From the IMG/VR virus record IMGVR_UViG_3300045988_159790: a DNA stretch of 64,000 nucleotides; one strand, given 5' to 3'. The stretch is from a virus. The notes under the pieces are model-generated. The model was not told the origin of the DNA. It saw only the letters and a program-made list of their open reading frames with translations, and made no database searches. The position numbers and the translations under genes were made by a program. Below are positions 46 through 62,647 of this stretch, in pieces. Numbering within the stretch: the stretch's first letter is position 1; the number at the start of each line of letters is the position of its first letter.

Positions 46-120
46 CATAAAACTCAACCCCTTTCTATATTTATATGATAACATATTTTTTTATAATTGT
101 CAACTCCTTTCTACATTGTT

Positions 121-149
121 ATTATAACATTTTGTAACTTATTTGTCAA
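121..149 (-). promoter_or_regulatory. minus-strand promoter TTGACA-17-TATAAT (proximal, cassette 1)
   Basis: rc hexamers attata 121-126 and tgtcaa 144-149. Confidence 0.6.
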
Positions 150-164
150 GAACTTTCTGAAAAA

Positions 165-192
165 CTTTGTTTTCAATCTCATTTGTTATCTG
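165..192 (-). promoter_or_regulatory. conserved leader motif CAGATAACAAATGAGATTGAAAACAAAG (minus sense), copy 1
   Basis: Near-identical 27-nt block present once in each cassette between the distal and proximal minus promoters. Confidence 0.5.
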
Positions 193-217
193 CTTTTCTC
201 TGTTCCTTACATTGAAT

Positions 218-246
218 AGTATAATACTTTGAGGCAGATATTGCAA
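218..246 (-). promoter_or_regulatory. minus-strand promoter TTGCAA-17-TATACT (distal, cassette 1)
   Basis: Read from rc. Confidence 0.5.
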
Positions 247-255
247 TAGACAATA

Positions 256-295
256 TGCACAAAGTTATGGGAAAATATTTGTGCAGTTTTATGTG
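256..295. promoter_or_regulatory. operator-like inverted repeat TGCACAAAG-N-TTTGTGCA
   Basis: 8-9 bp arms with ~15-bp spacer containing TTATGGGAAAAT; located 10-50 bp upstream of plus promoter. Confidence 0.4.
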
Positions 296-305
296 CGGAT
301 TTCGC

Positions 306-334
306 TTGACAAAATATCAAAAGTATGGTATAAT
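306..334 (+). promoter_or_regulatory. consensus sigma70-type promoter TTGACA-17-TATAAT (cassette copy 1, convergent to flanking genes)
   Basis: Exact hexamers and 17-bp spacer read from sequence. Confidence 0.7.
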
Positions 335-342
335 GGTAAATA

Positions 343-369
343 CCGGCGAAGCCGGACGCCTTCCAGGCG
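343..369 (+). ncRNA. promoter-proximal twin hairpins A (CCGGC-GAA-GCCGG) and B (CGCCT-TCC-AGGCG), copy 1
   Basis: Begins ~9 nt after -10; stems co-vary between copies. Confidence 0.35.
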
Positions 370-394
370 ATGATTTTCTGACGAAAATTTTAGT

Positions 395-426
395 CATAAC
401 TAAAAAGGTAGGCATTTCTGCCTACC
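395..426 (-). terminator. rho-independent terminator of 439..888 (GGGTAGGCAGAAATGCCTACC + TTTTT on minus)
   Basis: Hairpin plus T-run on minus strand. Confidence 0.7.
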
Positions 427-438
427 CGCAACTGACTA

Positions 439-888
439 TTATATTAAATCTTTAAGTCTTTCAATAATGTCCTGTCTCGCGTCTATCGTGCAACCCTGCG
501 ACCAACCGCGTCTTACCTTTTCATTATCATCAACTAATATCTGAAATCCGCCTAAATGTCTAGTACAATTGGCTTTCGTTGTGCCATACTTGACAAGATG
601 TACTTCATCATAAGGGAAACCTATCTGCTCAAGCCATGCTCTCTTAGCACTGCGAACAGCCGCGTCATATTTTTTATTGCTTTCCTTGCTTAACCAACTT
701 ACAATAACAATCTTCCAACCATTAATCTTGAGTGTATTAATCAAATCGTTTAACATTGTAGGCTCATAAACTGGCTGTGCTATCTCATAAGGGCGAGTGC
801 TACAATTCTTTAAATCTTCAAGCCAACCCTCAACTCCATAGAAATCTGCTATTGTTCCGTCCATATCAAAAACTAAAATTTTATTCAT
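439..888 (-). CDS. HAD-superfamily phosphatase (5'-nucleotidase-like)
   Basis: N-terminal FDMDGTIADF (DxDGT motif I), VIVSW (motif II), LVDDN (motif IV); RBS AGAGGT; intrinsic terminator 395-426 just downstream. Confidence 0.75.
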   Translation of the reverse strand: MNKILVFDMDGTIADFYGVEGWLEDLKNCSTRPYEIAQPVYEPTMLNDLINTLKINGWKIVIVSWLSKESNKKYDAAVRSAKRAWLEQIGFPYDEVHLVKYGTTKANCTRHLGGFQILVDDNEKVRRGWSQGCTIDARQDIIERLKDLI

Positions 889-944
889 ATTATATACCTC
901 TTTTCTTTTTTAGATTGTCGGGGCTTTTCAGCCCCAACTTATTA

Positions 945-1916
945 TTAGCAATATCCCTCAAGCATTAACATTAAGCCCTCAATCTTACTTACATAAGAAT
1001 TATGCGTTGTCTGCTGGCTAAGATAGTTGTTAAATGCTTCAATAACTACTGGAATGGCTTTCGGTCTCTTGTTAATAGCATAATCGTAAGTTGTACCCAG
1101 TTCTCTGAAAGGAAAAGCCTTGAGTATTGGTTCAATCTTGCCTTTCTTTAATGCCTTTGTGAGAATATCAGCTTCTATCTCACTATCACTTAATGCGGTA
1201 TGGTCCTCAGTAAAATCGTATCTCTTATTAAGATACTGGAAGCTAGTTTCTGCTGAAGATTTAAAGAACTCTCCGCTGTTAGTGATTAAGCTATTGTCAA
1301 GACAGAAGTTTCTGTACTTATCAATATTTATTAATCTCTCACAAGCTACTGCCCATAAGTCCACGATAGGAAACTCAAAATCTCTTAACTTAAATACTGG
1401 TTTAAGATACTCTGGATTACTCTCTCTATCATCTTTATATCCCCTAACAATCTTCTCACAACTCATTCTCTGCTTATCTTCCCAGTACTGATAGCCTGGT
1501 GCGTAAAGGTGTGCGATGTACTGTTCTGTAAAAGGAATTGCTTTCTTGTAATCAAATGCGGCATTGTATGCACATGTGCAAGTACACATTTCCAAATCTT
1601 CAAGCAATTCTGCAACCATATCATTCCAGTTGCGAACACCTATCTTACCCTCTGCGAGAAGCTGTTCATAAATAGGGCGCTTATTGCGGTAATAGGCTGT
1701 ATTAAAGATAGCCGGTACAAAGAAAGTTTCCTGAATAAGATAATTAACTCTCTTTACTCTATTGCCCAATCTGTCTGTTATTACCCAGCCTATATCATAA
1801 ACAAGTGGCTTGGCAATAGCAATCTTCTGTTTCTGTTTCGGATTCTTTGCAATCTCATTTGCAAAAGGTAGTGTAGCAGTCTCCGTGTCCAATGTTAAAT
1901 AATACTTCTTTTTCAT
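945..1916 (-). CDS. DEDDh 3'-5' exonuclease (DnaQ-like)
   Basis: Exo I LTLDTETAT, Exo II YNAAFD, Exo III HTALSDSEIEAD motifs; RBS GAGGT; co-transcribed with 439..888 (no promoter in 889-944). Confidence 0.85.
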   Translation of the reverse strand: MKKKYYLTLDTETATLPFANEIAKNPKQKQKIAIAKPLVYDIGWVITDRLGNRVKRVNYLIQETFFVPAIFNTAYYRNKRPIYEQLLAEGKIGVRNWNDMVAELLEDLEMCTCTCAYNAAFDYKKAIPFTEQYIAHLYAPGYQYWEDKQRMSCEKIVRGYKDDRESNPEYLKPVFKLRDFEFPIVDLWAVACERLINIDKYRNFCLDNSLITNSGEFFKSSAETSFQYLNKRYDFTEDHTALSDSEIEADILTKALKKGKIEPILKAFPFRELGTTYDYAINKRPKAIPVVIEAFNNYLSQQTTHNSYVSKIEGLMLMLEGYC

Positions 1917-1955
1917 TTCTAAATGATACCTCTTTTCTTTGATTTCTATGTGTTT

Positions 1956-1985
1956 ATTATAACACCCTTTTTATTATTTTGTCAA
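1956..1985 (-). promoter_or_regulatory. minus-strand promoter TTGACA-18-TATAAT (proximal, cassette 2; drives exonuclease-HAD operon)
   Basis: Read from rc. Confidence 0.6.
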
Positions 1986-2001
1986 GTGGTTTTTTAAAAA
2001 A

Positions 2002-2028
2002 CTTGTTTTCAATCTCGGTTGTTATCTG
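2002..2028 (-). promoter_or_regulatory. conserved leader motif copy 2
   Basis: cttgttttcaatctcggttgttatctg. Confidence 0.5.
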
Positions 2029-2057
2029 TTTTTCTCTGTTCCCCTTGAACAATTATA

Positions 2058-2086
2058 ATTATAGACCTACTACAAGAGAATGTCAA
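2058..2086 (-). promoter_or_regulatory. minus-strand promoter TTGACA-17-TATAAT (distal, cassette 2)
   Basis: Read from rc. Confidence 0.6.
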
Positions 2087-2132
2087 GCATTTTTTAGGAA
2101 AAAATTGTTTTTATTTTAGTACATAAAATCGC

Positions 2133-2161
2133 TTGACAAATTACCGAAAGTATGCTACAAT
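2133..2161 (+). promoter_or_regulatory. promoter TTGACA-17-TACAAT (cassette copy 2)
   Basis: Read from sequence. Confidence 0.65.
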
Positions 2162-2169
2162 GCAAAATT

Positions 2170-2196
2170 CCGGCAAAGCCGGTCGCGCAGAGCGCG
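2170..2196 (+). ncRNA. twin hairpins A (CCGGC-AAA-GCCGG) and B (CGCGC-AGA-GCGCG), copy 2
   Basis: Same position relative to promoter; compensatory stem changes. Confidence 0.35.
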
Positions 2197-2205
2197 GTGA
2201 AAATG

Positions 2206-2232
2206 TAAAGAAAAAGTGCGGATTTCCGCACT
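2206..2232 (-). terminator. rho-independent terminator of 2231..2575
   Basis: AGTGCGGAAATCCGCACT + TTTTTC on minus. Confidence 0.7.
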
Positions 2233-2575
2233 AATTCTGATACAAATTTTTTACTTCTATTACATTTCCGCAACTATCACATTTATAATAATAATAGTTA
2301 GTACCTCCTACACCTCTTCCGCGACTGGAAGCACTAACAAATTCATAATGTCCATTTTCGCATTCTGTACAAATTCCATTATTCCATGTTTTTATATCGC
2401 TATCTGCCTCTTGTATAAGACCAAAAGAGAATAAACCCGCAATTATACTTGTAGTTATAATAAATACTAATATTTTTAACCATTTCTTTTTAGTATTCAT
2501 ATTACTAATTATTATTATACCGAAGAATGAACAAATAAGAAACATTAAACAAAACATAACGATATTTCTAAACAT
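2231..2575 (-). CDS. hypothetical membrane protein, two TM helices plus C-terminal CxxC...CxxC zinc ribbon
   Basis: 114 aa ORF, RBS AAAGGGG, hydrophobic segments, CTEC...CDSC; terminator hairpin at 2206-2232. Confidence 0.5.
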   Translation of the reverse strand: MFRNIVMFCLMFLICSFFGIIIISNMNTKKKWLKILVFIITTSIIAGLFSFGLIQEADSDIKTWNNGICTECENGHYEFVSASSRGRGVGGTNYYYYKCDSCGNVIEVKNLYQN

Positions 2576-2613
2576 ATTTTACCCCTTTCTTGGGGCTGTA
2601 TAGCCCCAATCCT

Positions 2614-3084
2614 TTATAATGTTTTACACTCTGCGACGAAATACTTCGCATGATATTTTTCTACAATAGCCTTTACAACAGTGCTTTGCTTTTGTGTCTC
2701 ACAATAGACATTGAATAACATATACTTCTCAATATCTATGTAGCTATATGGAATCCTTAAAGTGTCTAAAGTTTCCATTAACTCTTTAGCATAATGTGGC
2801 TTCACTGTCATTTCCACTTTCCATAGTTTATCTCTTGTACTCTTTTCTTCAATCAGCTTTACAATGTAAACTCCGATAAGATTACACATAGCTATTATGA
2901 AAGCCTTTAAGAGAAGCGGAAGGTCGCACATCATGTATATTACTACAATAGTATACAAACCATAGGCTAATGCGTTGATTGCGGCGGCAGCTCCTTTTCC
3001 ACACTTGACAGTTACTAAAGATTTTGCTGTCTGAATAATAACATTTACAATGTTAAGAATAATAAATAAAACTAATAAATTCAT
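2614..3084 (-). CDS. hypothetical membrane protein (N-terminal TM helices, soluble C-terminal domain)
   Basis: 156 aa ORF with GAGGT RBS; hydrophobic N-terminal half. Confidence 0.5.
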   Translation of the reverse strand: MNLLVLFIILNIVNVIIQTAKSLVTVKCGKGAAAAINALAYGLYTIVVIYMMCDLPLLLKAFIIAMCNLIGVYIVKLIEEKSTRDKLWKVEMTVKPHYAKELMETLDTLRIPYSYIDIEKYMLFNVYCETQKQSTVVKAIVEKYHAKYFVAECKTL

Positions 3085-3101
3085 AATTAATACCTCTTTT
3101 C

Positions 3102-3323
3102 TTAATATTCTTTTACTTCTCTTACTAAATCAACTGGTTCAGGTGGTACATCTGCTTCTGTAAGGTCTAACCAACAATGTCGCTCAAGCCATCTCAAAAG
3201 AACTAACTGTTCTCCTGTTATGTGTAAATATGTTGGCAGATTATCTTCATCATCATAATTGCCCTCAAGGTCTAATTTCTTAATACTTACATCATATTCA
3301 TCTTTCATAATTGAATACCTCAT
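3102..3323 (-). CDS. hypothetical small acidic protein (probable true start at internal ATG 3308, MKDEYD...)
   Basis: ORF; GAGGT RBS sits 8 nt upstream of the internal ATG. Confidence 0.45.
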   Translation of the reverse strand: MRYSIMKDEYDVSIKKLDLEGNYDDEDNLPTYLHITGEQLVLLRWLERHCWLDLTEADVPPEPVDLVREVKEY

Positions 3324-3350
3324 TTCTATTCTATGTTTTTGTCAAGGATA

Positions 3351-3377
3351 CTTGTTTTCAATCTTATTTGTTATCTG
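3351..3377 (-). promoter_or_regulatory. conserved leader motif copy 3
   Basis: cttgttttcaatcttatttgttatctg. Confidence 0.5.
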
Positions 3378-3395
3378 TTCCCTTGAACAATTATA

Positions 3396-3423
3396 ATTAT
3401 AACAGATTATAAGCAAATGTCAA
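3396..3423 (-). promoter_or_regulatory. minus-strand promoter TTGACA-16-TATAAT (distal, cassette 3)
   Basis: Read from rc. Confidence 0.55.
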
Positions 3424-3467
3424 GCAGTTTTGGGAAAATAAAAAAATTTTTTATTTTGATTTTTCTC

Positions 3468-3496
3468 TTGACAAAAATGCCAAAATGTGATATAAT
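3468..3496 (+). promoter_or_regulatory. promoter TTGACA-17-TATAAT (cassette copy 3)
   Basis: Read from sequence. Confidence 0.7.
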
Positions 3497-3505
3497 ATCA
3501 AAATA

Positions 3506-3541
3506 CCGGCGAAGCCGGACGCCCACAGGGCGGTCTTTTTT
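3506..3541 (+). ncRNA. twin hairpins A and B (CGCCC-ACA-GGGCG) followed by T-run GTCTTTTTT; a ~40-nt promoter-to-terminator unit, copy 3
   Basis: Hairpin B plus T7 forms an intrinsic terminator on plus strand. Confidence 0.4.
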
Positions 3542-3545
3542 GAGC

Positions 3546-3582
3546 ATAAAAAGCTGATGACTATTAGTTTAGTCATCAGCTT
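3546..3582 (-). terminator. rho-independent terminator of 3587..3952
   Basis: AAGCTGATGACTAAACTAATAGTCATCAGCTT + TTTT on minus. Confidence 0.7.
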
Positions 3583-3586
3583 ACAG

Positions 3587-3952
3587 CTACTTTTTCTTTC
3601 TATGCTTTATCAGCGACAGTGAGTATTCATTCTCGCCGATGTTAAAGGTCAACTCTTTCTGCGGATTGGCTATCTGAACATTACTAATCTTGCCATTAAG
3701 TACCATTCCTCCAAGTAGAGTTTTTAAACACCCGATAAAATCAACCTTTTCATCATCGAGTTTTACTTCTCGTGGCTTCCGCGGTTTCTTTTCAGCTTCC
3801 GCACCCTTAACATAGTTTTTTATTCCCTTAGCTTTGATTTCCATTTCCGCCATTTCCATAGCTTCTTCTTTTGTGACTGGTTCTCCGTCTGCTTCACATT
3901 CCTTGAAAATCTTTAAAGCTAACTTCTCTAAGGCTTCTTTTTTACTATCCAT
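3587..3952 (-). CDS. hypothetical protein
   Basis: 121 aa ORF, RBS AGAGGT, rho-independent terminator 3546-3582 immediately downstream. Confidence 0.55.
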   Translation of the reverse strand: MDSKKEALEKLALKIFKECEADGEPVTKEEAMEMAEMEIKAKGIKNYVKGAEAEKKPRKPREVKLDDEKVDFIGCLKTLLGGMVLNGKISNVQIANPQKELTFNIGENEYSLSLIKHRKKK

Positions 3953-3974
3953 GCCCTATACCTCTTTCTTTTAA

Positions 3975-3999
3975 ATTGGGCGGTGTATTTCAACCGCCC
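3975..3999 (-). terminator. GC-rich hairpin after 4009..4386 (weak T-run)
   Basis: GGGCGGTTGAAATACACCGCCC. Confidence 0.35.
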
Positions 4000-4008
4000 G
4001 TCCGCAGA

Positions 4009-4386
4009 TTAGACAAGTGAGAAGATTGCCTTGTCCTTTTCCTCTTCTCTCTTTGCTGTGCCATTGGCAACCATAATCTTGAGAAGTGCAACTACTTTCT
4101 GATTAGAAAGCGCCTGAACCGCTTCATCAGCAGGGAAGTCTTTCATAGCCTTGAGCATAATCTGAGTAGAAGTACCCTTGAAACCGTCAAGGACAACCTT
4201 GAGCTTCTCAACCAGTGCTTCATTAGCCTTAGCTTTCTTATCAGAACCAGCCTTAGCCTTAGCTTTCTTCTTCTCAAGGAGTTCCTTTTCGTGCATAAGA
4301 TAAGTCTTATACATCTCATTGTCCTGTACGAACTCTTCTCCAAGCATAGCCTCGATAACCTGTAACTTTGTAATCTTCTTTTCCAT
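4009..4386 (-). CDS. hypothetical protein (K/E-rich, helical)
   Basis: 125 aa ORF, RBS GAGGT; hairpin 3978-3999 downstream. Confidence 0.5.
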   Translation of the reverse strand: MEKKITKLQVIEAMLGEEFVQDNEMYKTYLMHEKELLEKKKAKAKAGSDKKAKANEALVEKLKVVLDGFKGTSTQIMLKAMKDFPADEAVQALSNQKVVALLKIMVANGTAKREEEKDKAIFSLV

Positions 4387-4498
4387 AATGCAATACCTCG
4401 CTTTTATATAATATTTGAAGCTGATTTTTATTTTTTAATGTGGTCGATTGATGGCTCCCTTTCCTTTCCACATATATATGATAGCACATTTTATTGCG

Positions 4499-4789
4499 CT
4501 AGTCAAGCATAAATAATGTCATTCCGGCTATTTCCTTTTCTACCACTTCTAAAGTATCTAAATGAATAGTGGCTCTGACTATCTTCCAACAGCCAGTTTC
4601 AAACTTGTTGTGTTCATGGCGGCGTGGTAGTCTCTCTGCGGCATGGACTGCACTCTGACAATCTTCAAATACACCATCTATAACATAAGCAACTTGCGTT
4701 CCCATGCAATCTAAGTATCTCATTACTTTTAAGACATACTTAGTCTCTGTTTTTCTTGGTACATGCTTAGTCTCTGTTCCCATAACCAT
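4499..4789 (-). CDS. hypothetical protein
   Basis: 96 aa ORF directly downstream of minus-strand TTGACA-17-TATAAT promoter 4810-4838; RBS GGAAG. Confidence 0.5.
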   Translation of the reverse strand: MVMGTETKHVPRKTETKYVLKVMRYLDCMGTQVAYVIDGVFEDCQSAVHAAERLPRRHEHNKFETGCWKIVRATIHLDTLEVVEKEIAGMTLFMLD

Positions 4790-4809
4790 TACTTCCTTTC
4801 TATACCCTT

Positions 4810-4838
4810 ATTATATCACTTAGGTATCTATTTGTCAA
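4810..4838 (-). promoter_or_regulatory. minus-strand promoter TTGACA-17-TATAAT (proximal, cassette 4)
   Basis: Read from rc. Confidence 0.6.
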
Positions 4839-4860
4839 GCACTTCTTTTTTTTTGTTCGG

Positions 4861-4888
4861 GTTGTTTAGCAATCTCATTTGTTATCTC
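4861..4888 (-). promoter_or_regulatory. conserved leader motif copy 4 (more diverged)
   Basis: gttgtttagcaatctcatttgttatctc. Confidence 0.4.
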
Positions 4889-4901
4889 CCTTACAAGTAT
4901 C

Positions 4902-4929
4902 ATTATAGCAGATTGCCCCAAAATTGCAA
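4902..4929 (-). promoter_or_regulatory. minus-strand promoter TTGCAA-16-TATAAT (distal, cassette 4)
   Basis: Read from rc. Confidence 0.5.
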
Positions 4930-4939
4930 TAGTCAAAAC

Positions 4940-4969
4940 TGCACAAGATTTTGGGATAATGTTTGTGCA
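4940..4969. promoter_or_regulatory. operator-like inverted repeat TGCACAAG-N-TTTGTGCA
   Basis: Same architecture in cassette 4. Confidence 0.4.
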
Positions 4970-4988
4970 ATATGTCAACTTTTTTCCC

Positions 4989-5017
4989 TTGACAAAAATC
5001 CTAAAAGGTGGTATAAT
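4989..5017 (+). promoter_or_regulatory. promoter TTGACA-17-TATAAT (cassette copy 4)
   Basis: Read from sequence. Confidence 0.7.
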
Positions 5018-5026
5018 AGGCAAATT

Positions 5027-5050
5027 CCGGCGGGGCCGGACGTGCTCCGC
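5027..5050 (+). ncRNA. hairpin A (CCGGC-GGG-GCCGG) and degenerate hairpin B, copy 4
   Basis: Same spacing from -10. Confidence 0.3.
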
Positions 5051-5059
5051 CCGGTGCGA

Positions 5060-5200
5060 TTATTCTAACTTAAATTAGTTTGAACTAACAAGTGTTTTAT
5101 AAGTCTAACTTAAGTTAGCTTAATCTAACTACAGTTAGTTTGAATTAACAAGGATTAGCTTAATCTAACTAGAGTTAGTTTGAATTAACAACTGTTAAAA
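5060..5200. repeat. tandem ~40-bp iterons (2 near-identical plus 2 degenerate) each carrying palindrome CTAACT-N2-3-AGTTAG followed by TTTGAATTAACAA
   Basis: agcttaatctaactacagttagtttgaattaacaagg at 5117 and 5157; degenerate copies at 5060 and 5098. Confidence 0.7.
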
Positions 5201-5299
5201 ATTGCTAACTTTACTTTTATAAAACGAACTTCAATTCGTCTTCTCTAACTTTAATTTTATACAGCTAATTACAGATATTTGTAGCTAATTAAAATTAGA

Positions 5300-5335
5300 G
5301 AACGCAAATCGAATTTTGGAGGGTTGCCGCTACTT
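5300..5335 (-). terminator. hairpin GGGTTGCC-N7-GGCAACCC overlapping stop of 5330..5614 (weak T-run)
   Basis: 8-bp stem. Confidence 0.35.
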
Positions 5336-5614
5336 GGCAACCCAAACCTTTAATATTATGTCGTCATATTTAGACGACTGGTCATTAATGTCAAATAACA
5401 TCTTGACATTTTGACCCTCCGCGATATCACAGCCATCATATTCCCAGATATCGCCTGCCCTATCAGCAATCCGCACAAATCCATTATCATTGCTGATTAC
5501 CTTACCCTCTCTTGTACAGTGACCCTCAAGGTATATCGCGCCTAAGAATAATATTCCTAAAACTAAACCCAGGGCTATTCTTTTAACTATTGCTTTACTA
5601 TTGTTTTTTCTCAT
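5330..5614 (-). CDS. hypothetical secreted/membrane-anchored protein
   Basis: 94 aa ORF, N-terminal basic stretch plus hydrophobic helix (signal/anchor-like), RBS GAGGT. Confidence 0.5.
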   Translation of the reverse strand: MRKNNSKAIVKRIALGLVLGILFLGAIYLEGHCTREGKVISNDNGFVRIADRAGDIWEYDGCDIAEGQNVKMLFDINDQSSKYDDIILKVWVAK

Positions 5615-5675
5615 TTTAAATACCTCATTTCATTTTTATTTTTATATGTGGGCTTGGCTTCCCAAGCCCTAATCA

Positions 5676-5984
5676 TTAACAATATATCAAACTCATGTCT
5701 GCCCACTTGAGAATAGATATCTGTGCGCATTGTCTACCAAGTGCCAAAGCGTCTCTTTTTGTAGACACTCTGTGGCTCTTGTCTACAAAATAAACGCCAT
5801 TCTCAAGCCAAAGTCCGCAATTACCACCGTATGCTCTAACGGCTTTAATTGCTTCCTCGGGAGTTGTAACCATTACTCCCTCGGTGGCTACTTGATAACC
5901 ACTCTTGTATGTGATTATCTTACCATTCTTGAGTGTTAAACCGCCACACTCCTCAATCTTTCTTATTGTCCTAATGTTTATCAT
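5676..5984 (-). CDS. hypothetical protein
   Basis: 102 aa ORF with RBS GTGAGGT. Confidence 0.5.
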   Translation of the reverse strand: MINIRTIRKIEECGGLTLKNGKIITYKSGYQVATEGVMVTTPEEAIKAVRAYGGNCGLWLENGVYFVDKSHRVSTKRDALALGRQCAQISILKWADMSLIYC

Positions 5985-6026
5985 ACTTATAATACCTCAC
6001 TTTCTTTTCTCTTGGATAGTCCCGGC

Positions 6027-6356
6027 TTAGTAGCCGAGACTTATTAACTTGTCTATGTAAGAGTTCAGAACTGCTACAAACTGCTTGTTTGTCATCTTTC
6101 TAAACCTCTCAAGTGTAAAGTCGATAGGCGGAAGTTCTACACCCTCAACCTTTATGATGTACACCTGCGGACACGCTTTAATTGCATTGACTGCATGGAA
6201 GATGTTCACATCTTCGTATATATAAGTTGTGTCCTCATAGTTTGCAAATCTCATTGAGAACTTCTCTTTTGTATACATATTTAATTTCTTCATAGTAACC
6301 TCTTTTCTGTCTCTCTCTTGAAAGACTATCAATTTTATTTTACGGTTTTCGTTCAC
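6027..6356 (-). CDS. hypothetical protein
   Basis: 109 aa ORF with RBS AGAGGT. Confidence 0.5.
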   Translation of the reverse strand: MNENRKIKLIVFQERDRKEVTMKKLNMYTKEKFSMRFANYEDTTYIYEDVNIFHAVNAIKACPQVYIIKVEGVELPPIDFTLERFRKMTNKQFVAVLNSYIDKLISLGY

Positions 6357-6583
6357 CGCACCATTATAATATCATACCCCGTTTTCAATGTCAACACTTT
6401 TTTCAAAAATTTTTAAAAATTTTTTTATGCCCTATTTTCAAGGCTTTTCACGCACCCAAACACATGCACCAGACGATGATGTGACTACTTTTTTAGTCAG
6501 CAATAGTGACGATGTGTTTACTTTTGTAGTCAAATAGTCATCAATTATGGGATATGATTAGTCTTGTAGTCACACTCAATGTC

Positions 6584-6652
6584 GATTTGAAAAGTTTAAA
6601 TAACTAGTCAAATAGGCAAAATGCGACACGCTTTATGGGAGGAAGCGTGCCG
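6584..6652 (+). repeat. conserved ~70-bp element with hairpin whose loop is UAUGGGAGG (copy A)
   Basis: gatttgaaaagtttaaataactagtcaaataggcaaaatgcgacacgctttatgggaggaagcgtgccg; stem cacgctt/aagcgtg. Confidence 0.5.
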
Positions 6653-6660
6653 TTCAAAAT

Positions 6661-6780
6661 AACTAACCAAAGTTAGTCAAGCCTAACAATAGTTAGACTA
6701 AACTAATTAGATTTCGGGAAGACTAACTAGAGTTAGTTTGAATTAACAAGCATTAAGCTTGACTAACTCAAGTTAGTCTT
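6661..6780. repeat. second cluster of four CTAAC(T)-N-(A)GTTAG palindromes including one full iteron copy (gactaactagagttagtttgaattaacaag)
   Basis: actaac-caaa-gttagt, ctaac-aata-gttag, gactaact-ag-agttag, gactaact-ca-agttagtc. Confidence 0.65.
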
Positions 6781-6790
6781 TCCTAAACTA

Positions 6791-6823
6791 GATGAGTGCG
6801 GATTAGCGGTTTCCGCACTCATC
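6791..6823. repeat. perfect inverted repeat with 11-12 bp arms (GATGAGTGCGG ... CCGCACTCATC)
   Basis: Read from sequence; no adjacent T-run on either strand. Confidence 0.6.
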
Positions 6824-6979: not shown

Positions 6980-7461
6980 TCTACCACCTCCCCAGTTTTT
7001 TCATTTACTAAGCTACATCTAAGACCTAGTATTTTGCAAGCTTTAGCTGTATTATAGAATACTGATAATGCTGTGCCATAACTTTCAATCCCTGTAAAGA
7101 TTGGAGTGTTGCCATTATAAACTCCGTAGGTTACTTCCTGGAGTTCAAACTCCGCGATTGCGGAGTTTACTTGATTCTGCATTTCCTTAAGTAATGCTCC
7201 ACCGAAAAGCTCCTGAAGCTGATTGCCTTGAGTGAGACAGTCAAGTTCCATCTCTAACTTTGCCCAACACTCTGCTGAATCCTCATAAATAAACCCCTTG
7301 AGGATTATCTTGCAATCTACAGCATTAACTACACTGTGGATTGTATTGATTATCATAAGAGCATTATCTGCTACTGTATCAACACAGAGCCAGTTGCCCT
7401 CTTTAACTTCTTTACCTATTATTGACCTCATTGTTGCAATCAGCTTGTTTCCTTTTATCAT
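6976..7461 (-). CDS. hypothetical protein (ORF track start 7491 is TTG; ATG at 7461 with GGAAAGAGGT RBS preferred)
   Basis: ORF, RBS-supported internal ATG (MIKGNKL...). Confidence 0.5.
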   Translation of the reverse strand: MIKGNKLIATMRSIIGKEVKEGNWLCVDTVADNALMIINTIHSVVNAVDCKIILKGFIYEDSAECWAKLEMELDCLTQGNQLQELFGGALLKEMQNQVNSAIAEFELQEVTYGVYNGNTPIFTGIESYGTALSVFYNTAKACKILGLRCSLVNEKTGEVVE

Positions 7462-7573
7462 AATATACCTCTTTCCGCCCTTGCTTCTCAAGGGCTATCT
7501 AATTTATTTTGCCGCCATTGCCTTGCGACACCATTATAGTACACCCACCGCGCACTCATTGCAATATGCAAAA

Positions 7574-7603
7574 TGCACAAAGTTTGACAGATGTTTTTGT
7601 GCA
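7574..7603. promoter_or_regulatory. operator-like inverted repeat TGCACAAAG-N-TTTGTGCA (third copy, outside a full cassette)
   Basis: Preceded by same ATTGCAATA context as copies 1 and 4. Confidence 0.4.
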
Positions 7604-7741
7604 ATTTGTACAAAAGAGAATGCACCAAGATGGAAGTACCGAACATTTGTTCACCGCTTTAGTCAGCTCCGAGAATAGTTTAGTTTTTTAGACGCATGAG
7701 TTGTGGGAATTTTTATTTGACTACTTGATTAGACTTTTAGA

Positions 7742-7810
7742 ATTTGAAATGTTTAAATGACTAGAAATATAGTAAAATGCGGAGCGCTTTATGGGAGGAA
7801 GCGCGCCGAT
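7742..7810 (+). repeat. conserved ~70-bp element copy B with compensatory stem change (gcgctt/aagcgc)
   Basis: aatttgaaatgtttaaatgactagaaatatagtaaaatgcggagcgctttatgggaggaagcgcgccg. Confidence 0.5.
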
Positions 7811-7987
7811 GATTTGAAAATGTACGGGACTACAGTCTCAGTGTATGCTGATTATTTTTTGATAAAACTACAGACCATACATAAAAGGTGGTCATCAGTT
7901 TAAAATAAAAAAATTTTCTCTTTTTACCCGGGGATATATTATGGGAAAATGAAAAATTAATTCGATGAAATCATATTTAGCTGGTAC

Positions 7988-8050
7988 ATTCACACACCCC
8001 AAATTTTTTGAAATTTAAAAAACGATTCACACACCAAAAATTTTTTCGTT
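7988..8050. repeat. direct repeat ATTCACACACC(C/A)AAAATTTTTT x2 (37-bp period)
   Basis: Read from sequence. Confidence 0.5.
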
Positions 8051-8065
8051 TTTTAAAATACGAGA

Positions 8066-8371: not shown

Positions 8372-8393
8372 TTTTATTCACTCCTTTATAATA

Positions 8394-8422
8394 ATTATAT
8401 CAAAAATTTTTTTTCTTTTCAA
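8394..8422 (-). promoter_or_regulatory. minus-strand promoter TTGAAA-17-TATAAT for 8066..8371
   Basis: Read from rc; divergent from plus promoter 8440-8468. Confidence 0.55.
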
Positions 8423-8439
8423 ATTATCTACTTTTGTCC

Positions 8440-8468
8440 TTGACTTGTGAAAATTTTTTTGGTATAAT
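8440..8468 (+). promoter_or_regulatory. promoter TTGACT-17-TATAAT for rightward late/structural operon
   Basis: Read from sequence. Confidence 0.65.
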
Positions 8469-8499
8469 TATTATAAGAATAAGAAATAAGGAGAGACTA

Positions 8500-57760: not shown

Positions 57761-57780
57761 CCTCTCCTATTTTTTTGTTT
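57745..57780. terminator. terminator hairpin at convergence of rightward and leftward arms
   Basis: GGAGAGGTCTTATTGACCTCTCC + TATTTTTTTGTTT on plus; sits between convergent genes. Confidence 0.7.
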
Positions 57781-58304
57781 TAAAAAGCAGATTTACTAGG
57801 TATACTATTAGCTTTAACTTTTTGGGCATTTGTAGTCCCATTTACTAAATAGGCATCTAAGATGCAAATAGCATCTGCTTCATCATCATTTACTATTTTA
57901 TTATAATTATTTTTTACATATTCTATATCTGCCGCTTTTAACCTATCTCTTGTTATTCCACGTCCCGTATGAATACCAATAGCACTTCTCCAAGAGCTTG
58001 GTAGTATAGTCTCAATTTTTATATTTTTATTATATTCCCAAACTGCAACTCTTAAACATCCTTGTAACCAATTTAATTTTTGATTAACTGTTGAATTATG
58101 CGTATACTCTGCATGAACTTCTTCTATTACTATTATATCTATATTATATTTTTTTATAAGTTTTAGTATCTCATCTCGCATATATGCAATTCTTTTCTCT
58201 ATTGATGTACTTGCGGAAGCTATACATCCTGAGTCTCTTACTTCTTCACTTTTAATACTCCAACCTGTTGATTTAGTACTGGCATCTAATGCTAATATAT
58301 TCAT
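57780..58304 (-). CDS. RuvC-like Holliday junction resolvase
   Basis: N-terminal ILALDASTKSTGWSI and C-terminal DDEADAICILDAY catalytic motifs; RBS AGGAGA. Confidence 0.8.
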   Translation of the reverse strand: MNILALDASTKSTGWSIKSEEVRDSGCIASASTSIEKRIAYMRDEILKLIKKYNIDIIVIEEVHAEYTHNSTVNQKLNWLQGCLRVAVWEYNKNIKIETILPSSWRSAIGIHTGRGITRDRLKAADIEYVKNNYNKIVNDDEADAICILDAYLVNGTTNAQKVKANSIPSKSAF

Positions 58305-58454
58305 TGTTTTTTTCTCCTATCTAAAATTTGATTTAAAAAAATCCAAAACCTAATTTTGTTTTCTATTTACGAGTGTCTGCAACCTGAGCAGATTTTTTCT
58401 CTTACATTTAGTATATCAAATTTTTTCTTTAGAGTCAATGAGTTTAATGTAGAA

Positions 58455-58489
58455 AATAAAAAAAAATGGAGAGTGAATTAACACTCTCC
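58455..58489 (-). terminator. intrinsic terminator after dut-region genes
   Basis: GGAGAGTGTTAATTCACTCTCC + TTTTTTTTT on minus. Confidence 0.8.
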
Positions 58490-58729
58490 ATCAAACATAC
58501 AAGTAAAATTTTTATTTCCTTTATAGTAATATTCTTTCATCATCTTATTATGATAATATTCTAAATCTCTAAAAGTAACAAATTTATTTCCAAAATCATC
58601 ACGTATATCATTGGCAACAATTTTTTCTGCTGTTATCACTCCAGTACTTAAATTACTTGCATCAATAGTAGTTGAAATATTAGTTATTTCCGGAAGAACC
58701 AAAACCGCCATCTCCTCTATCTGTTTCAT
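58478..58729 (-). CDS. small hypothetical protein overlapping 3' end of dut in another frame
   Basis: ORF only; no clear RBS; ends at terminator 58455-58489. Confidence 0.3.
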   Translation of the reverse strand: MKQIEEMAVLVLPEITNISTTIDASNLSTGVITAEKIVANDIRDDFGNKFVTFRDLEYYHNKMMKEYYYKGNKNFTCMFDGEC

Positions 58730-59138
58730 TCAAATCATTAACTTCTGTGAATTCCATTGATTGATATGGTAATAAAATCATTTGCGCAATTCTATCCCCA
58801 GGCGAGATAACTGTATTTCTATTCGAGTCATTATGAATAGCTACGATAACTTCGCCTCGATAGTCACAATCAACCACACCTACGCAATTAGCTGGTCTAA
58901 GCCCTTGCTTAGTAGCCAATCCGCTTCTAGCAAAGATTCCTGCAAAGAATCCTTCAGGTAACTCAAAAGCTAAGCCAGTTCCAATTTTAACAGTTTCTTC
59001 AGATTTTATTGTAATTGGAGCATCTATAGCTGCATAGAGGTCATATCCGGCAGCATACTTTGAACCCTGAGTAGGAATAATAGCATCGTCCCGCAATTTT
59101 TTAACATTAATCATAAATGTATTACTTAAAAGACTCAT
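58680..59138 (-). CDS. dut: dUTP diphosphatase
   Basis: AAGYDLYAA, GVVDCDYRGEV, RGDGGFGSSG dUTPase motifs; RBS GGAGGA. Confidence 0.95.
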   Translation of the reverse strand: MSLLSNTFMINVKKLRDDAIIPTQGSKYAAGYDLYAAIDAPITIKSEETVKIGTGLAFELPEGFFAGIFARSGLATKQGLRPANCVGVVDCDYRGEVIVAIHNDSNRNTVISPGDRIAQMILLPYQSMEFTEVNDLNETDRGDGGFGSSGNN

Positions 59139-59431
59139 TAATCTTCATCCTCCTCATCATTCCTTGCTATTGTTGGGAAACTGCCAAATTTTCTTGAATA
59201 ATCTACTGAAATAGTAGAATCTGGTTCTTTCTCTTCCTGGAATACTCTATTAAGAGTAACACGATACCATGACTGAACAACTTCACCTTTAACCTTCTGC
59301 TCTTTATATTCTGATGAATATTTTGCTAAAATAGAAGTTTTTTCATTTTTAGCTTCTTCAATAAGAGCTTTTGCTTCAGACTCTGAGTCTACTCTCCATT
59401 GCTCTTGTGTTTTTATTAAATATTTTGACAT
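59138..59431 (-). CDS. hypothetical protein
   Basis: 97 aa ORF with AAAGGAG RBS. Confidence 0.5.
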   Translation of the reverse strand: MSKYLIKTQEQWRVDSESEAKALIEEAKNEKTSILAKYSSEYKEQKVKGEVVQSWYRVTLNRVFQEEKEPDSTISVDYSRKFGSFPTIARNDEEDED

Positions 59432-59445
59432 TTTATTAACTCCTT

Positions 59446-59706
59446 TTATCTCGAAACAATATTTATATTCAAATCTTCACAATCATACTTAGTAAAGAAA
59501 TCTTTTTTATATTTTTCAAGATAAGCTGTATTTCCTACTAAGTCTATATCATTTATTGAATACTCTTTACAAAAACCAATTATAGCATCGACTAAAGAGT
59601 CAGTAGGCGCAGATTGTAACTCTACGCCTATACCACGCTTATAGATAGCTATTGTTTGGTCATAATCTCCTATATTAAACAATACAATTATTTTATCCAT
59701 TAGCAC
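59446..59706 (-). CDS. hypothetical protein
   Basis: 86 aa ORF with AAGGAG RBS. Confidence 0.5.
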   Translation of the reverse strand: MLMDKIIVLFNIGDYDQTIAIYKRGIGVELQSAPTDSLVDAIIGFCKEYSINDIDLVGNTAYLEKYKKDFFTKYDCEDLNINIVSR

Positions 59707-60068
59707 TCAATTACTCCTTGTGACCAATCTGCTAAATAATATACAAAGCTATCATTTAACTGCGGATTTCTTATCCATATCTCATAGGCATCTCCCTCAG
59801 ATTGCTTAATAATATCCATAACCTCTCCAAGAGAATGAAGAATTTCTGATAACTTTAAAGTAATGTTATCCCAATCTGCATTCTTGCAATTAAACAATGT
59901 ATAATAATGTGTTTCATTATTTACAAGTATAAAATATGTCTGTTTATCACTCATATATCCAGAAACTTGATTAAGCTTTTTATTATACTCAAGGGGGTCT
60001 AAAGGCTGACCTTGATTTATAATCTGTTTATTAATCTCATATATAGTTCCTAACTGAATATTAGCCAT
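59700..60068 (-). CDS. hypothetical protein
   Basis: 122 aa ORF. Confidence 0.5.
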   Translation of the reverse strand: MANIQLGTIYEINKQIINQGQPLDPLEYNKKLNQVSGYMSDKQTYFILVNNETHYYTLFNCKNADWDNITLKLSEILHSLGEVMDIIKQSEGDAYEIWIRNPQLNDSFVYYLADWSQGVIEC

Positions 60069-60119
60069 TCTTTTCTTACCTTTCTTCTTTTTATTAATTA
60101 TATCATAAATTTTTAAAAA

Positions 60120-62288
60120 TTACAAATGTAATACTCTATCTCTTATTTCTTCTGTTCTCCCCTGATTCCAAAAATTCGTGCCTATATATCCACATGTTCT
60201 TCTGGCAACATTCATCTTGCTAGTATCTGTATTACCGCAGTTAGGACATCTCCAATAAAGTTTATGATTGTCATCTTCTTCAATCATTATTTGACCGGTG
60301 TATCCACAACATTGACAATAATCAGATTTGGTGTTAATTTCTGCATACATAATATTGCCATAAATAAATTGTAAAACTGATTCAATAGCCTCAATATTAT
60401 TCTGCATATCTGGAACTTCAATATAACTGATTGCACCACCAGGAGAAAGTTTCTGAAATTCTGATTCAAGTTTTAATTTCTTAAAAGCATCTATTTTCTC
60501 TCTTACACATACATGATAAGAATTTGTAATATAATCATGGTCTGTTACATTTTCAATAATACCAAATCTTTTCTTCAAACATTTTGCAAATTTATATGTT
60601 GTTGATTCTAGAGGGGTTCCATATACAGAATAATCTATATCTTCTGCAGCTTTCCATTGTTCGCATTTATCATTAAGATACTGCATTACGGATAAAGCAA
60701 AATGCTTTCCTTCTTCTGTAGTATGAGATTTTCCTAACATTCGATATGTCATTTCATATAATCCTGCATAACCTAAAGATATAGTGGAATAACCATGATA
60801 TAATAATTCATTAATATTATCATCCTTACTTAATCTTGCTATTGCGCCATGTTGCCATAATATTGGTGCAATTTGAGAAGATGTATTTAATAATCTACCA
60901 TGTCTACATTTTAAAGCTATATGACATAATTCAAGTCTTTCCTCTAATATTTTCCAAAATTCATCAAAATCTCCATTAGAAGAACATGCAACATCTACTA
61001 AATTAATAGTAACAACACCTTGATTAAATCTGCCATAGTATTTACCTTTATTTTTATCATAATTTAAGGCATGAGCATAATTTTCCTTCATTCTATCAAC
61101 TGTCAAGAAGCTACGACAGCCCATACAAGGATATAAATCGCCTTCCTTAATTTCTTTTTCAATCTTATTAGAAATATAGTCTGGAACCATTCTTTTAGCA
61201 GTACATTGAGCAGCTAAGTGTGTTAAGTACCAATATTTACTATCTTTATGAATATTTATATCATCAAGAGCGTAAATTAATTTAGGAAAAGCCGGAGTAA
61301 TATAAACACCTTTTTCATTCTTTACACCTTGTATTCTTTGTTTTAACACTTCTTCAATAACAAGAGCTAAATCTTCTCTGTCTTGTCCTTCTTCAGCTTC
61401 TATTAAGTTCATATAAACAGTAATAAAAGGAGCTTGACCATTTGTAGTCATCAAAGTAACTATCTGATATTGTAAGGTTTGAACACCTGCGCGAACATCA
61501 TTTAAAACCATTTTTTCAATAGTCTCTTCTGAAAGCTCTGGATAATCTTTTCTAAATTTCTTTCTACTTTCTTCAACAAAAGGAGATAAATGAGCTAAAC
61601 TTACTGACTGTCCTCCATATTGAGAACTTGCAACTTGAGCAATTATTTGTGTGGCAATGTTACAAGCTGTTGAAAATTTATGAGGTTTATCAATCTTTGT
61701 TTTACTTATAACAGTTCCATTTTGTAGCATATCTTCCAAATTTATTAAACAGCAATTATAAATTCTTTGAATAAAATAATCTGCATCATGGAAATGCAAA
61801 ATTCCTTTTTCATGAGCATCTACAATTTCCTGTGGTAATAGAAATCTTTTAGTTACATCTACTGAAACTTCACCAGCTACATAATCTCTCTGTGTAGTAG
61901 CAAGCATTGCGTCCTTATTTGAATTTTCATGTAAATAATAATCATTTGAAGAATCTACAATTTCATTAATTGTGTCATCTATTGTATTCTTTCTTTTTTT
62001 ATTTCTTTTTTCACGAAATAATATATAAGATTTTGCCACATCTTTTCTTTTTGTTGACATAAGACCTTTTTCAACATAGTCTTGAATCTCTTCTATTGTT
62101 AAAGTTTTTTCTTCTGCAATATCGCTAATATAATCTGCAATATTACCAGCTTTCTCAATAGCATAATCATCTACATTACCATTGTCAACATCTTTAAACG
62201 CGGCAAGCACAGCATCAATAATTTTATTTCTATCAAATTTCTGTACTCTTCCATCTCTTTTTATAATAGTTTTCATTAGAACCTCCAT
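60120..62288 (-). CDS. nrdD: anaerobic ribonucleoside-triphosphate reductase (class III RNR)
   Basis: N-terminal ATP-cone, C-terminal Zn ribbon CQCCGYTG...CPNCG and glycyl-radical motif RRTCGYIG; RBS GGAGGT. Confidence 0.93.
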   Translation of the reverse strand: MEVLMKTIIKRDGRVQKFDRNKIIDAVLAAFKDVDNGNVDDYAIEKAGNIADYISDIAEEKTLTIEEIQDYVEKGLMSTKRKDVAKSYILFREKRNKKRKNTIDDTINEIVDSSNDYYLHENSNKDAMLATTQRDYVAGEVSVDVTKRFLLPQEIVDAHEKGILHFHDADYFIQRIYNCCLINLEDMLQNGTVISKTKIDKPHKFSTACNIATQIIAQVASSQYGGQSVSLAHLSPFVEESRKKFRKDYPELSEETIEKMVLNDVRAGVQTLQYQIVTLMTTNGQAPFITVYMNLIEAEEGQDREDLALVIEEVLKQRIQGVKNEKGVYITPAFPKLIYALDDINIHKDSKYWYLTHLAAQCTAKRMVPDYISNKIEKEIKEGDLYPCMGCRSFLTVDRMKENYAHALNYDKNKGKYYGRFNQGVVTINLVDVACSSNGDFDEFWKILEERLELCHIALKCRHGRLLNTSSQIAPILWQHGAIARLSKDDNINELLYHGYSTISLGYAGLYEMTYRMLGKSHTTEEGKHFALSVMQYLNDKCEQWKAAEDIDYSVYGTPLESTTYKFAKCLKKRFGIIENVTDHDYITNSYHVCVREKIDAFKKLKLESEFQKLSPGGAISYIEVPDMQNNIEAIESVLQFIYGNIMYAEINTKSDYCQCCGYTGQIMIEEDDNHKLYWRCPNCGNTDTSKMNVARRTCGYIGTNFWNQGRTEEIRDRVLHL

Positions 62289-62362
62289 TATTTTTATATT
62301 TTTGAGTCTATAAATATATAACTTTTATTATATAAAAGTTATATATTTTTGACCAATGGAAA

Positions 62363-62635: not shown

Positions 62636-62647
62636 TTTTTATCTCCT

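Follow-up and report, generated by a model that had tools for sequence, protein, structure and literature searches.

A 64,000-nucleotide stretch of IMG/VR virus record IMGVR_UViG_3300045988_159790 (the window) carries near its left end four intergenic cassettes of one architecture, C1 (100-438), C2 (1917-2230), C3 (3324-3586) and C4 (4790-5060). These are probably (at roughly 60%) paralogous copies of an early-operon boundary cassette that promotes, insulates and, via homology, shuffles modules of orphan open reading frames (ORFans) in operons that host sigmaA would transcribe early. Followed along the minus strand, a cassette would read as the terminator of the upstream operon, two GC hairpins, a backward-facing sigmaA promoter, an operator or an A/T tract, a distal sense promoter, a 24-nt leader box, a proximal sense promoter, and the Shine-Dalgarno (SD) sequence and ATG of the next operon. 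To judge from the consensus matches, each ORFan module would have its own strong promoter or promoters and its own terminator, and so could be expressed independently immediately after infection. The terminator and the opposing promoter-hairpin unit would close the module against read-through, by RNA polymerase (RNAP) collision or occupancy; this closing is the least certain part of the scheme. The cassettes would finally serve as portable homology for deleting, inserting and swapping modules with their regulation intact, and recombination at the cassettes is seen directly when strains are compared.

A full-length alignment of the four intergenic regions gives a mean column identity of 65% with long invariant blocks, families of direct repeats connect the four cassettes (paralogous cassettes are 65-85% identical), and motif searches of the window return the cassettes alone, with 0 matches expected in shuffles. 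The positions, common architecture and near-identical blocks described in a first-pass annotation, made from the letters alone, are thus upheld by alignment, direct repeats and motif searches. Promoters were scored as matches out of 12 to the TTGACA/TATAAT consensus, and terminators and hairpins were predicted in silico. The 64-kb window holds eight perfect (12/12) TTGACA-N16-18-TATAAT promoters, against ~0.2 expected by chance by our own estimate from base composition, and all eight lie inside the cassettes (121-5017); the hexamers are perfect in paralogous cassettes although the spacers differ. That annotation had also assigned each cassette a convergent plus-strand consensus promoter with twin hairpins, which was borne out: this plus-strand (antisense) promoter scores 12/12 in C1 (306-334, TTGACA-17-TGgTATAAT), C3 (3468-3496) and C4 (4989-5017) and 11/12 in C2 (2133-2161, TTGACA-17-TACAAT), with a TGn element in all four, and only the second hairpin of C4 has a mismatch. 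The proximal sense promoter lies ~150 bp from the antisense promoter. With four to five copies per 5-7 kb, the cassettes are clustered among ORFans.

Two 150-kb IMG/VR relatives, L003 and L004, have five cassettes to the four of the window. Comparison with these and with the Logan contig L074 identifies C4 as a chimera whose hairpin and antisense-promoter side comes from cassette A and whose leader and proximal-promoter side comes from cassette B. L074 matches the window at 99.9% and 99.0% identity on its two flanks, yet exactly between cassettes A and B it has seven small ORFs in a block of 1.54 kb. Diagnostic differences confine the crossover to 15 bases identical in A and B (window 4942-4956), which lie within the inverted-repeat putative operator. 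An assembly artefact was considered as the source of the chimera and is ruled out: A and B share no exact match longer than 15 nt at the junction, which excludes de Bruijn-graph collapse, and eight Logan contigs were reported with the window-type neighbourhood; of these L073, the one read, has 100% identity to the window across 10.3 kb.

Two further gene gains or losses end at cassette edges. A 73-aa ORFan (3102-3323, minus strand) at the edge of C3 is missing in L003 and L023, and its deletion is bounded by the two SD-ATG repeats (GAGGTATTnAATTATGAA) that flank it. A 96-aa ORFan (4499-4789, minus strand) is missing in L003, and the ends of this indel are the two proximal-module copies between which it lies, that of C4 (4810-4838) and a solo proximal-type module (TTGACT-17-TATCAT, 10/12, minus strand, 4478-4506) between the 96-aa and 125-aa genes; an exact-protein look-up of the 96-aa product returned no record. 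The variation in gene content between cassettes, for which a comparison with related genomes had been proposed as a check, is thus present, in the chimeric C4 as against L074 and in the 73-aa and 96-aa genes, and three independent indels end on cassette modules. The distal half of cassette B of L003 is C3-like, and therefore the cassettes are themselves mosaics; their near-identical shared blocks indicate that they act as the homology for recombination. Duplication extends to whole ORFan modules as well as cassettes, since the pair of 121-aa and 125-aa genes (window 3587-4386) has a diverged paralogous copy in sister genomes beyond the left edge of the window (L001 361-1125). Further left, at L001 120-300 near the contig end of IMGVR_UViG_3300014039_000016, ~180 nt of GC-richer, ORF-free DNA with several complementary segments looks like a structured RNA; Rfam at gathering threshold returned nothing for the equivalent region of L003.

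The promoter-early-stem-loop elements (PeSLs) of T4-type myoviruses, of ~100 bp or less, combine a sigma70-like early promoter with a stem-loop terminator and cluster among ORFans, and indels between close relatives end in them, leaving a chimeric PeSL (PMC2839356, PMC4122927). A PeSL is a unit with one promoter that reaches from the stop codon to the following ATG and has its stem-loop inside or beside the promoter; copies gather in hyperplastic regions, and excised mini-circles are detectable by inverse PCR. Like PeSLs, the window cassettes recur between genes and join a consensus early promoter for host sigma to a stem-loop terminator and an SD; they too cluster among small ORFans, and ORFan indels between close relatives likewise end in them and leave one chimeric cassette. 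Crossovers in both fall in short identical stretches, including the region from SD to -10. They differ in size (about 250-340 bp, three times larger) and in carrying two or three sense promoters, an operator, a leader box and an antisense promoter with hairpins for which PeSLs have no counterpart. There is also no sequence relation, and the setting is a Gram-positive host and an SPbeta-like siphovirus rather than a T4-type myovirus. By their promoter, terminator, ORFan clustering and chimera the cassettes work like PeSLs, but by size, promoter number and lineage they are not members; they are a bidirectional, larger variant of composite promoter-terminator shuffling cassettes. The PeSL-like reading first given to them is therefore retained as to repeats that flank ORFans and act as recombination sites, and given up as to membership and promoter count, so that the original observation is partly confirmed and its interpretation partly supported. 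PeSL-type shuffling, described for T4-like phages of Gram-negatives, is now seen in unrelated, uncultured large siphoviruses of gut Firmicutes, where promoter/terminator linkers let ORFans come and go with regulation unbroken, and in C4 a recombination event has been caught between 99.9%-identical strains.

The antisense promoters of the window are each followed, 8-9 nt past the -10, by twin 5-bp GC hairpins (343-369, 2170-2196, 3506-3532 and 5027-5053), and the antisense transcript would start 1-3 nt before them. In C1 the first hairpin is CCGGC-GAA-GCCGG (343-355) and the second CGCCT-TCC-AGGCG (357-369), with a weak plus-strand T-run at 374-379; C2 (2170-2196) has CCGGC-AAA-GCCGG and CGCGC-AGA-GCGCG and no plus-strand T-run after them; C3 (3506-3541) has CCGGC-GAA-GCCGG and CGCCC-ACA-GGGCG followed by a terminator-like T6 (3536-3541); and C4 (5027-5053) has CCGGC-GGG-GCCGG and CGTGC-TCC-GCCCG, the latter with one T.C mismatch, and for C4 an alternative single longer hairpin is predicted. 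Together the window, two IMG/VR genomes and ten contigs from metagenomes yielded nineteen distinct versions, of which 15 were aligned and counted. The first stem, CCGGC/GCCGG, is invariant among the 15 and its loop varies (GAA, GGA, AAA, TTT, GGG); in two cassette types the loop is inverted, AAA<->TTT, from strain to strain. Among cassette types the second stem has compensatory changes at two pairs (GC<->CG and CG<->UA), and 98.7% of its cells are paired as against 16-42% in slid controls. Judged by this pairing, the cassette hairpins are selected structures.

A plus-strand T-run follows the second hairpin in C3 (T6), in the sister-strain cassette B (T5) and weakly in C1, and none follows in C2 or C4; the minus-strand tail of the hairpins in the window is WAUUU. 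The T-runs of C3, B and C1 predict a plus-strand RNA of ~40 nt. That of C3 varies from 6 to 9 T among strains, a slippage-prone homopolymer at a regulatory position. A twin-hairpin RNA of this kind, produced from four to five strong promoters, might act in trans, as a sponge or decoy that engages a host protein or a defence system, perhaps as an antitoxin-like RNA or a repeat mimic, and the strong promoters, discrete hairpins and T-runs would indeed predict an abundant tiny RNA, encoded in several copies per genome, with conserved stems and variable loops. Such a role is very unlikely, as the loops and second stems differ among copies and so offer no common recognition sequence, the relatives described below carry a single long hairpin, unrelated in sequence and lacking a terminator, and Rfam gives no match. 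At gathering score nothing was matched in the window, L003 or L004 (at E<=1, matches of chance level only), and the hairpins, leader box and adjacent non-coding DNA had no match in either gathering or E-value mode. By eye there is no convincing complementarity between the plus-strand RNA and the leader box. Mimicry of CRISPR repeats and a likeness of the second hairpin to a type I-C repeat were considered and dropped: only the C2 version is similar.

The pairing of an antisense promoter with a hairpin extends well beyond the window species. The phage sigma protein, used as a probe, retrieved 45 loci of 52-64% identity, of which about 40 related early regions served for promoter counts; the antisense promoters were counted as distinct sequences with a score of at least 11/12. 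A strong hairpin comes directly after 86% of 100 distinct antisense promoters and after 7% of 357 sense promoters, and the mean minimum free energy of the first 60 nt is -17.9 kcal/mol for antisense against -4.2 kcal/mol for sense. The hairpin usually starts 7-9 nt past the antisense -10, a fixed spacing by which the antisense RNA would begin almost directly with the hairpin. In the relatives it is usually a single 8-12-bp GC stem of unrelated sequence, often with GGAAATTTCGG before it and, after it, an A-run and the terminator of the upstream gene. Perfect sense promoters stand immediately before SD-ATG in these genomes, and a divergent sense promoter lies within 330 nt of 64 of the 82 units.

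A scan anchored on hairpins and blind to promoters gave the same orientation. Among 109 hairpins, 36 had a full antisense promoter, 6 stood between face-to-face promoters and 4 had a sense promoter only; of the remainder 22 had a lone TTGACA on the left, 1 had a lone TTGACA on the right and 40 had none (several of these are apparently ordinary sense terminators), a bias of 58 antisense (36 full and 22 with TTGACA only) to 5 sense. Face-to-face pairs of perfect 12/12 promoters, with -10 boxes 25-45 nt apart and one GC-rich palindrome between them, occur at L030 4308-4592, L044 2128-2224, L064 2022-2128 and L066 1468-1559. From these counts, the antisense promoter with its GC hairpin is a family-wide feature. 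In the hairpins with TTGACA only (e.g. L056 765-791, 1391-1419 and 3085-3115; L058 1080-1111; L060 3306-3332), some with TACAAT in the loop, the promoter looks interrupted by the hairpin or built around it. A search of GTDB genomes for the strict promoter-hairpin pattern gave 0 matches, and the element is thus not common in prophages in that exact form.

Early operons capped by a consensus promoter that faces back into a GC hairpin constitute a conserved design rule, one that could reveal how such phages insulate or switch off their host-takeover genes. We tentatively suggest that the antisense sigmaA promoter with its 5'-proximal GC hairpin, placed after early-operon terminators, may be a dedicated and previously undescribed device of the whole ~140-150-kb gut Firmicutes phage family, which would use convergent transcription or an RNAP roadblock for the insulation or timed shut-off of host-takeover genes, and which would travel between lineages with the operator and leader box as a mobile module organising ORFan exchange. 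The product of the unit would be a very short 5'-hairpin RNA in C3, C1 and the sister-strain cassette B, or an antisense RNA entering the upstream operon in C2 and most relatives. 5'-terminal stem-loops stabilise RNAs (RNase J, RNase E).

Convergent promoters and 3'-overlapping antisense RNAs are known from coliphage 186 pR/pL, lambda OOP versus cII, and SPbeta bsrG/SR4. The present units resemble these in aiming a strong promoter at a transcription unit from its 3' side, and the relatives have true face-to-face consensus pairs sharing a GC hairpin. Those systems are, however, single switches or gene pairs, whereas here the unit is repeated at every early-operon boundary and three of five cassette types are predicted to end the antisense RNA before any overlap. 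In the host-takeover module of SPO1 a strong sigmaA promoter and a terminator belong to each of a large number of short early operons. It shares with the present phage the dense arrays of small-ORFan operons and the near-consensus sigmaA promoters, and SPO1 too is a large phage of Firmicutes in which a sigma factor of its own later takes over; neither a repeated antisense promoter-hairpin unit nor indels mediated by cassettes are known to have been reported for SPO1.

A number of observations weigh against the boundary-cassette reading. All cassette promoters and terminators are predicted from consensus matches. To point a constitutive consensus promoter at its own early operon is costly for the phage and brings no evident gain. 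Hairpins that stand 4-5 nt after a lone TTGACA without a -10 (22 of the 109) do not fit a simple model of promoter plus 5' hairpin. The relatives' hairpins have about 1 T in the 8 nt that follow in the plus (antisense) direction, and their usual sense-direction tail, GAAATTTCC, starts with A's when judged by eye; lacking a plus-strand T-run and having such a tail, the relatives' hairpin is not a classical terminator. Nor do G:U pairs favour either RNA strand (77 versus 73), and the folding energies do not either (42 versus 42). Several indels, finally, are found away from the cassettes, at plain junctions between genes to the left of C1 and within the block of small ORFs, so that the association of cassettes with breakpoints is clear and not exclusive.

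The indels at plain junctions would be expected if the cassettes were neutral leftovers from tandem duplication of one promoter region, at which recombination is incidental and no commoner than elsewhere; the limited identity of paralogous cassettes and the plain 754-bp tandem duplication of L029 agree with this. A neutral origin is nevertheless quite unlikely, in view of an architecture kept across ~40 diverged genomes despite differing hairpin sequences, of the compensatory changes in the second hairpin, of perfect hexamers in paralogues with differing spacers, and of the three independent indels ending on cassette modules. The absence of RNA-strand asymmetry is what would be predicted if the hairpins acted as DNA, either as cruciforms or other targets of structure-specific proteins that stimulate recombination, or as semi-mobile GC palindromes that land beside TTGACA-containing DNA. 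The GC clusters of yeast mitochondria, semi-mobile GC-rich palindromes in an AT-rich genome, are a model for the latter. The AAA<->TTT loop inversions of two cassette types are typical of template switching at palindromes, many family hairpins lack a full promoter (40 have none, 22 only TTGACA), many begin with ...TTCGGC and end with GCCG-CCAAA by eye, and the phage encodes a RuvC-like resolvase. Against a DNA-level role, which we regard as unlikely, the mapped crossover lies in the operator, outside the hairpins, the other two indels lie at promoter or SD repeats, the stems of the window species are only 5 bp long, and the spacing of hairpin to -10 is tightly held at 7-9 nt wherever a promoter exists, which points to a role at the level of the transcript or of RNAP.

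Such a role need not be insulation. The unit might instead produce a cis-antisense RNA, stabilised by its 5' hairpin, that runs back across the terminator and the 3' end of the upstream operon and lowers or time-limits its expression by interference or RNase III-type decay, insulation and recombination being secondary. Since the relatives are almost devoid of plus-direction T-runs after the hairpin, plus-strand transcripts should run on into the upstream gene, and the sense terminator, in examples inspected by eye, has no plus-side T-run that would stop them. The hairpin 7-9 nt past the -10, at the 5' end of the RNA, is by general knowledge in a stabilising position; the face-to-face promoter pairs of relatives and the lack of a plus-strand terminator in C2 are in keeping with an antisense function as well. 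This explanation is doubtful nonetheless, though it deserves serious consideration: in three of the five cassette types (C3, B and C1) the T-run right after the second hairpin would give a ~40-nt RNA that ends before it overlaps the mRNA, a constitutive sigmaA consensus promoter offers no obvious temporal control, and the upstream genes are heterogeneous and not toxins. The proteins encoded upstream of cassettes are a HAD/PNK-like phosphatase, a membrane protein and ORFans, and a type I toxin-antitoxin reading was rejected on that ground.

The boundary cassettes also contain a putative operator and a leader box. An inverted repeat, TGCACAA(A/G)-N14-TTTGTGCA, is found among cassettes in C1 and C4 only; in the form TGCACAAA-N14-TTTGTGCA it has 3 matches in the window against 0.01 expected, at 256-285 in C1 (9 nt upstream of the distal -35), at 4940-4969 in C4 (where it contains the 15-nt crossover interval) and, outside the cassettes, at 7574-7603, ~9 nt upstream of a TTGCAA -35 (7559-7564). 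Each copy stands 9-10 nt upstream of a TTGCAA -35, whereas C2 and C3 have A/T tracts in its place and distal promoters with the consensus TTGACA. Of the AT-rich operator-like segment once proposed for every cassette, a defined repeat thus remains in C1 and C4. The repeat occurs also in L030 and other distant relatives. The small neighbouring proteins had no Pfam match.

In Bacillus prophage SPbeta a 15-bp motif, SPBRE, is repeated in early promoter regions and bound by MrpR (PMC10516654). The likeness is one of arrangement: a short conserved element is repeated in early intergenic promoter regions of a large siphovirus, and the window repeat is found at three promoters and in distant relatives, as would be expected of an operator. 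The phage also shares YonG_N and weak portal similarity with SPbeta-like phages. SPBRE, however, has a proven binder in MrpR, whereas the inverted repeat is a candidate operator, and SPbeta is a prophage, whereas the relatives here appear as ~140-kb stand-alone contigs.

The leader box, all on the minus strand, is CAGATAACAAATGAGATTGAAAACAA in C1 (167-192), has ATG replaced by CCG in C2 (2003-2028), and has ATA in the window for the ATG of sister strains in C3 (3352-3377); C4 keeps only the core GATAACAAATGAGATTG (4870-4886). The leader motif described for all four cassettes is thereby confirmed, in C4 by its core. The form GATAACAAATGAGATTGA occurs exactly in L029 (four copies, one extending to 24 nt) and L061 (two copies), where the box always lies between tandem sense promoters. 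Putative operator and leader box are both found again in relatives whose sigma proteins are just 55-64% identical. Most copies of the box hold an SD and the mini-ORF ATG AGA TTG AAA; a leader peptide was rejected as the conserved feature because the ATG is lost in C2 and in the window C3 and the non-coding spacer is equally conserved. The poly-A/T tract between leader box and proximal promoter varies from ~9 to ~30 nt among strains (L004 ~7030-7075, in cassette B, compared with window 4846-4856) and is slippage-prone. With the motifs of cassettes, putative operator and leader box, early regions can be annotated in phage genomes from metagenomes.

The sense promoters and terminators are all on the minus strand. 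The distal promoter scores 9/12 in C1 (218-246, TTGCAA-17-TATACT), 12/12 in C2 (2058-2086) and, with a 16-nt spacer, in C3 (3396-3423), and 10/12 in C4 (4902-4929, TTGCAA-16-TATAAT). The proximal promoter is perfect (12/12) in C1 (121-149), in C2 (1956-1985, 18-nt spacer, upstream of gene 945-1916) and in C4 (4810-4838, upstream of gene 4499-4789); C3 has in its place an orphan TTGACA without a -10 (3342-3347). The statement in the first-pass annotation that every cassette has three near-perfect promoters is accordingly wrong for three of the four, C1 and C4 by their distal promoters and C3 by its missing proximal one. C1 has in addition a tandem proximal module (75-103, TTGACA-17-TATCAT, 11/12), followed by an SD and an ATG near 48. 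An upstream-gene terminator, likewise expected in each cassette, was found by terminator scan and folding in C1 (400-427, stem 406-427, T-run 400-405; gene 439-888) and C3 (3551-3582, 13-bp stem; gene 3587-3952) and is present in C2 (2209-2232, stem 2215-2232; gene 2231-2575); the terminator scan returned none upstream at C4, which instead adjoins an iteron array (5045-5250) into which its antisense promoter is directed.

That array and another at 6663-6808 consist of a 14-bp palindrome, CTAACTNNAGTTAG, spaced at 20 or 40 bp (8 sites against 0.17 expected), and flank genes 5330-6356; they look like iterons and are possibly an origin, a partition site or a regulator array.

Minus-strand genes occupy the window from 1 to ~8400 and plus-strand genes follow from 8434 on. 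The plus block starts with the phage sigma factor (phrog_5767), after which come a YonG_N protein, terminase, portal, a 3110-aa tape-measure protein (PhageMin_Tail) and tail genes. The portal is distantly and weakly similar to those of Enterococcus EF1-like, Phass-1, Brevibacillus and SPbeta-like siphoviruses; close relatives of the window are IMG/VR contigs of 147-150 kb, and distant ones are ~140-kb contigs binned with metagenome-assembled genomes of Clostridia, Bacilli and Erysipelotrichaceae. By gene content, portal likeness and these bins, the phage is an SPbeta-like siphovirus of gut Firmicutes, ~150 kb in size and with a sigma factor of its own, and the cassettes lie in its early region. 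Eight of ten early proteins flanking cassettes have no Pfam or PHROGs match, and megablast against the INPHARED phage collection gave 0 matches. Phass-1 (L026, OQ749652.1), the best named portal relative at 38% identity, was set aside as too distant and as using genetic code 15; it is placed in the 'Caudoviricetes code 15 clade' and its annotation is fragmented, whereas code 11 suits the window, in which ORFs reach 3110 aa.

All of the antisense units are directed toward the sigma and late genes, which would suit special transcription signals, either DNA-hairpin promoters for a virion RNAP of the phage N4 type or put/nut-like antitermination sites acting toward those genes. In the N4 system a giant single-subunit RNAP carried in the virion recognises hairpins with a 5-7-bp stem and a 3-nt loop, and the cassette hairpins resemble N4 early promoters in having stems of 5 bp and loops of 3 nt, mostly purines. 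Signals of either type are extremely improbable here, since the giant 3110-aa protein, the only giant protein with a domain match, is a tape measure and not a virion RNAP, the loops can be TTT, the units stand behind canonical sigmaA promoters, three cassette types have T-runs after the second hairpin, 3.4 kb of antisense genes separate the units from the sigma gene, and the latter has its own promoter (8440-8468). This promoter (plus strand, TTGACT-17-TATAAT) is one of a divergent pair at 8394-8468, the other being minus-strand TTGAAA-17-TATAAT, each 11/12; the pair is enclosed by a 27-nt inverted repeat (8386-8412 / 8450-8476) and forms the switch point between the leftward early genes and the sigma-factor gene, which starts near 8500. 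At its right end (57780-64000) the window is back on the minus strand with a replication and nucleotide module of RuvC-like resolvase, dUTPase, NrdD and a DNA-polymerase-like gene. The large non-coding stretches 6400-6660 and 7650-8060 hold further repeats: GATGTGnnTACTTTTnTAGTCA three times at 6478-6572, a 35-nt GC-containing hairpin-like repeat, AAAATGCGnnnCGCTTTATGGGAGGAAGCGnGCCG, at 6618-6652 and 7774-7808, and ATTCACACACC...TTTTTT twice at 7988-8058.

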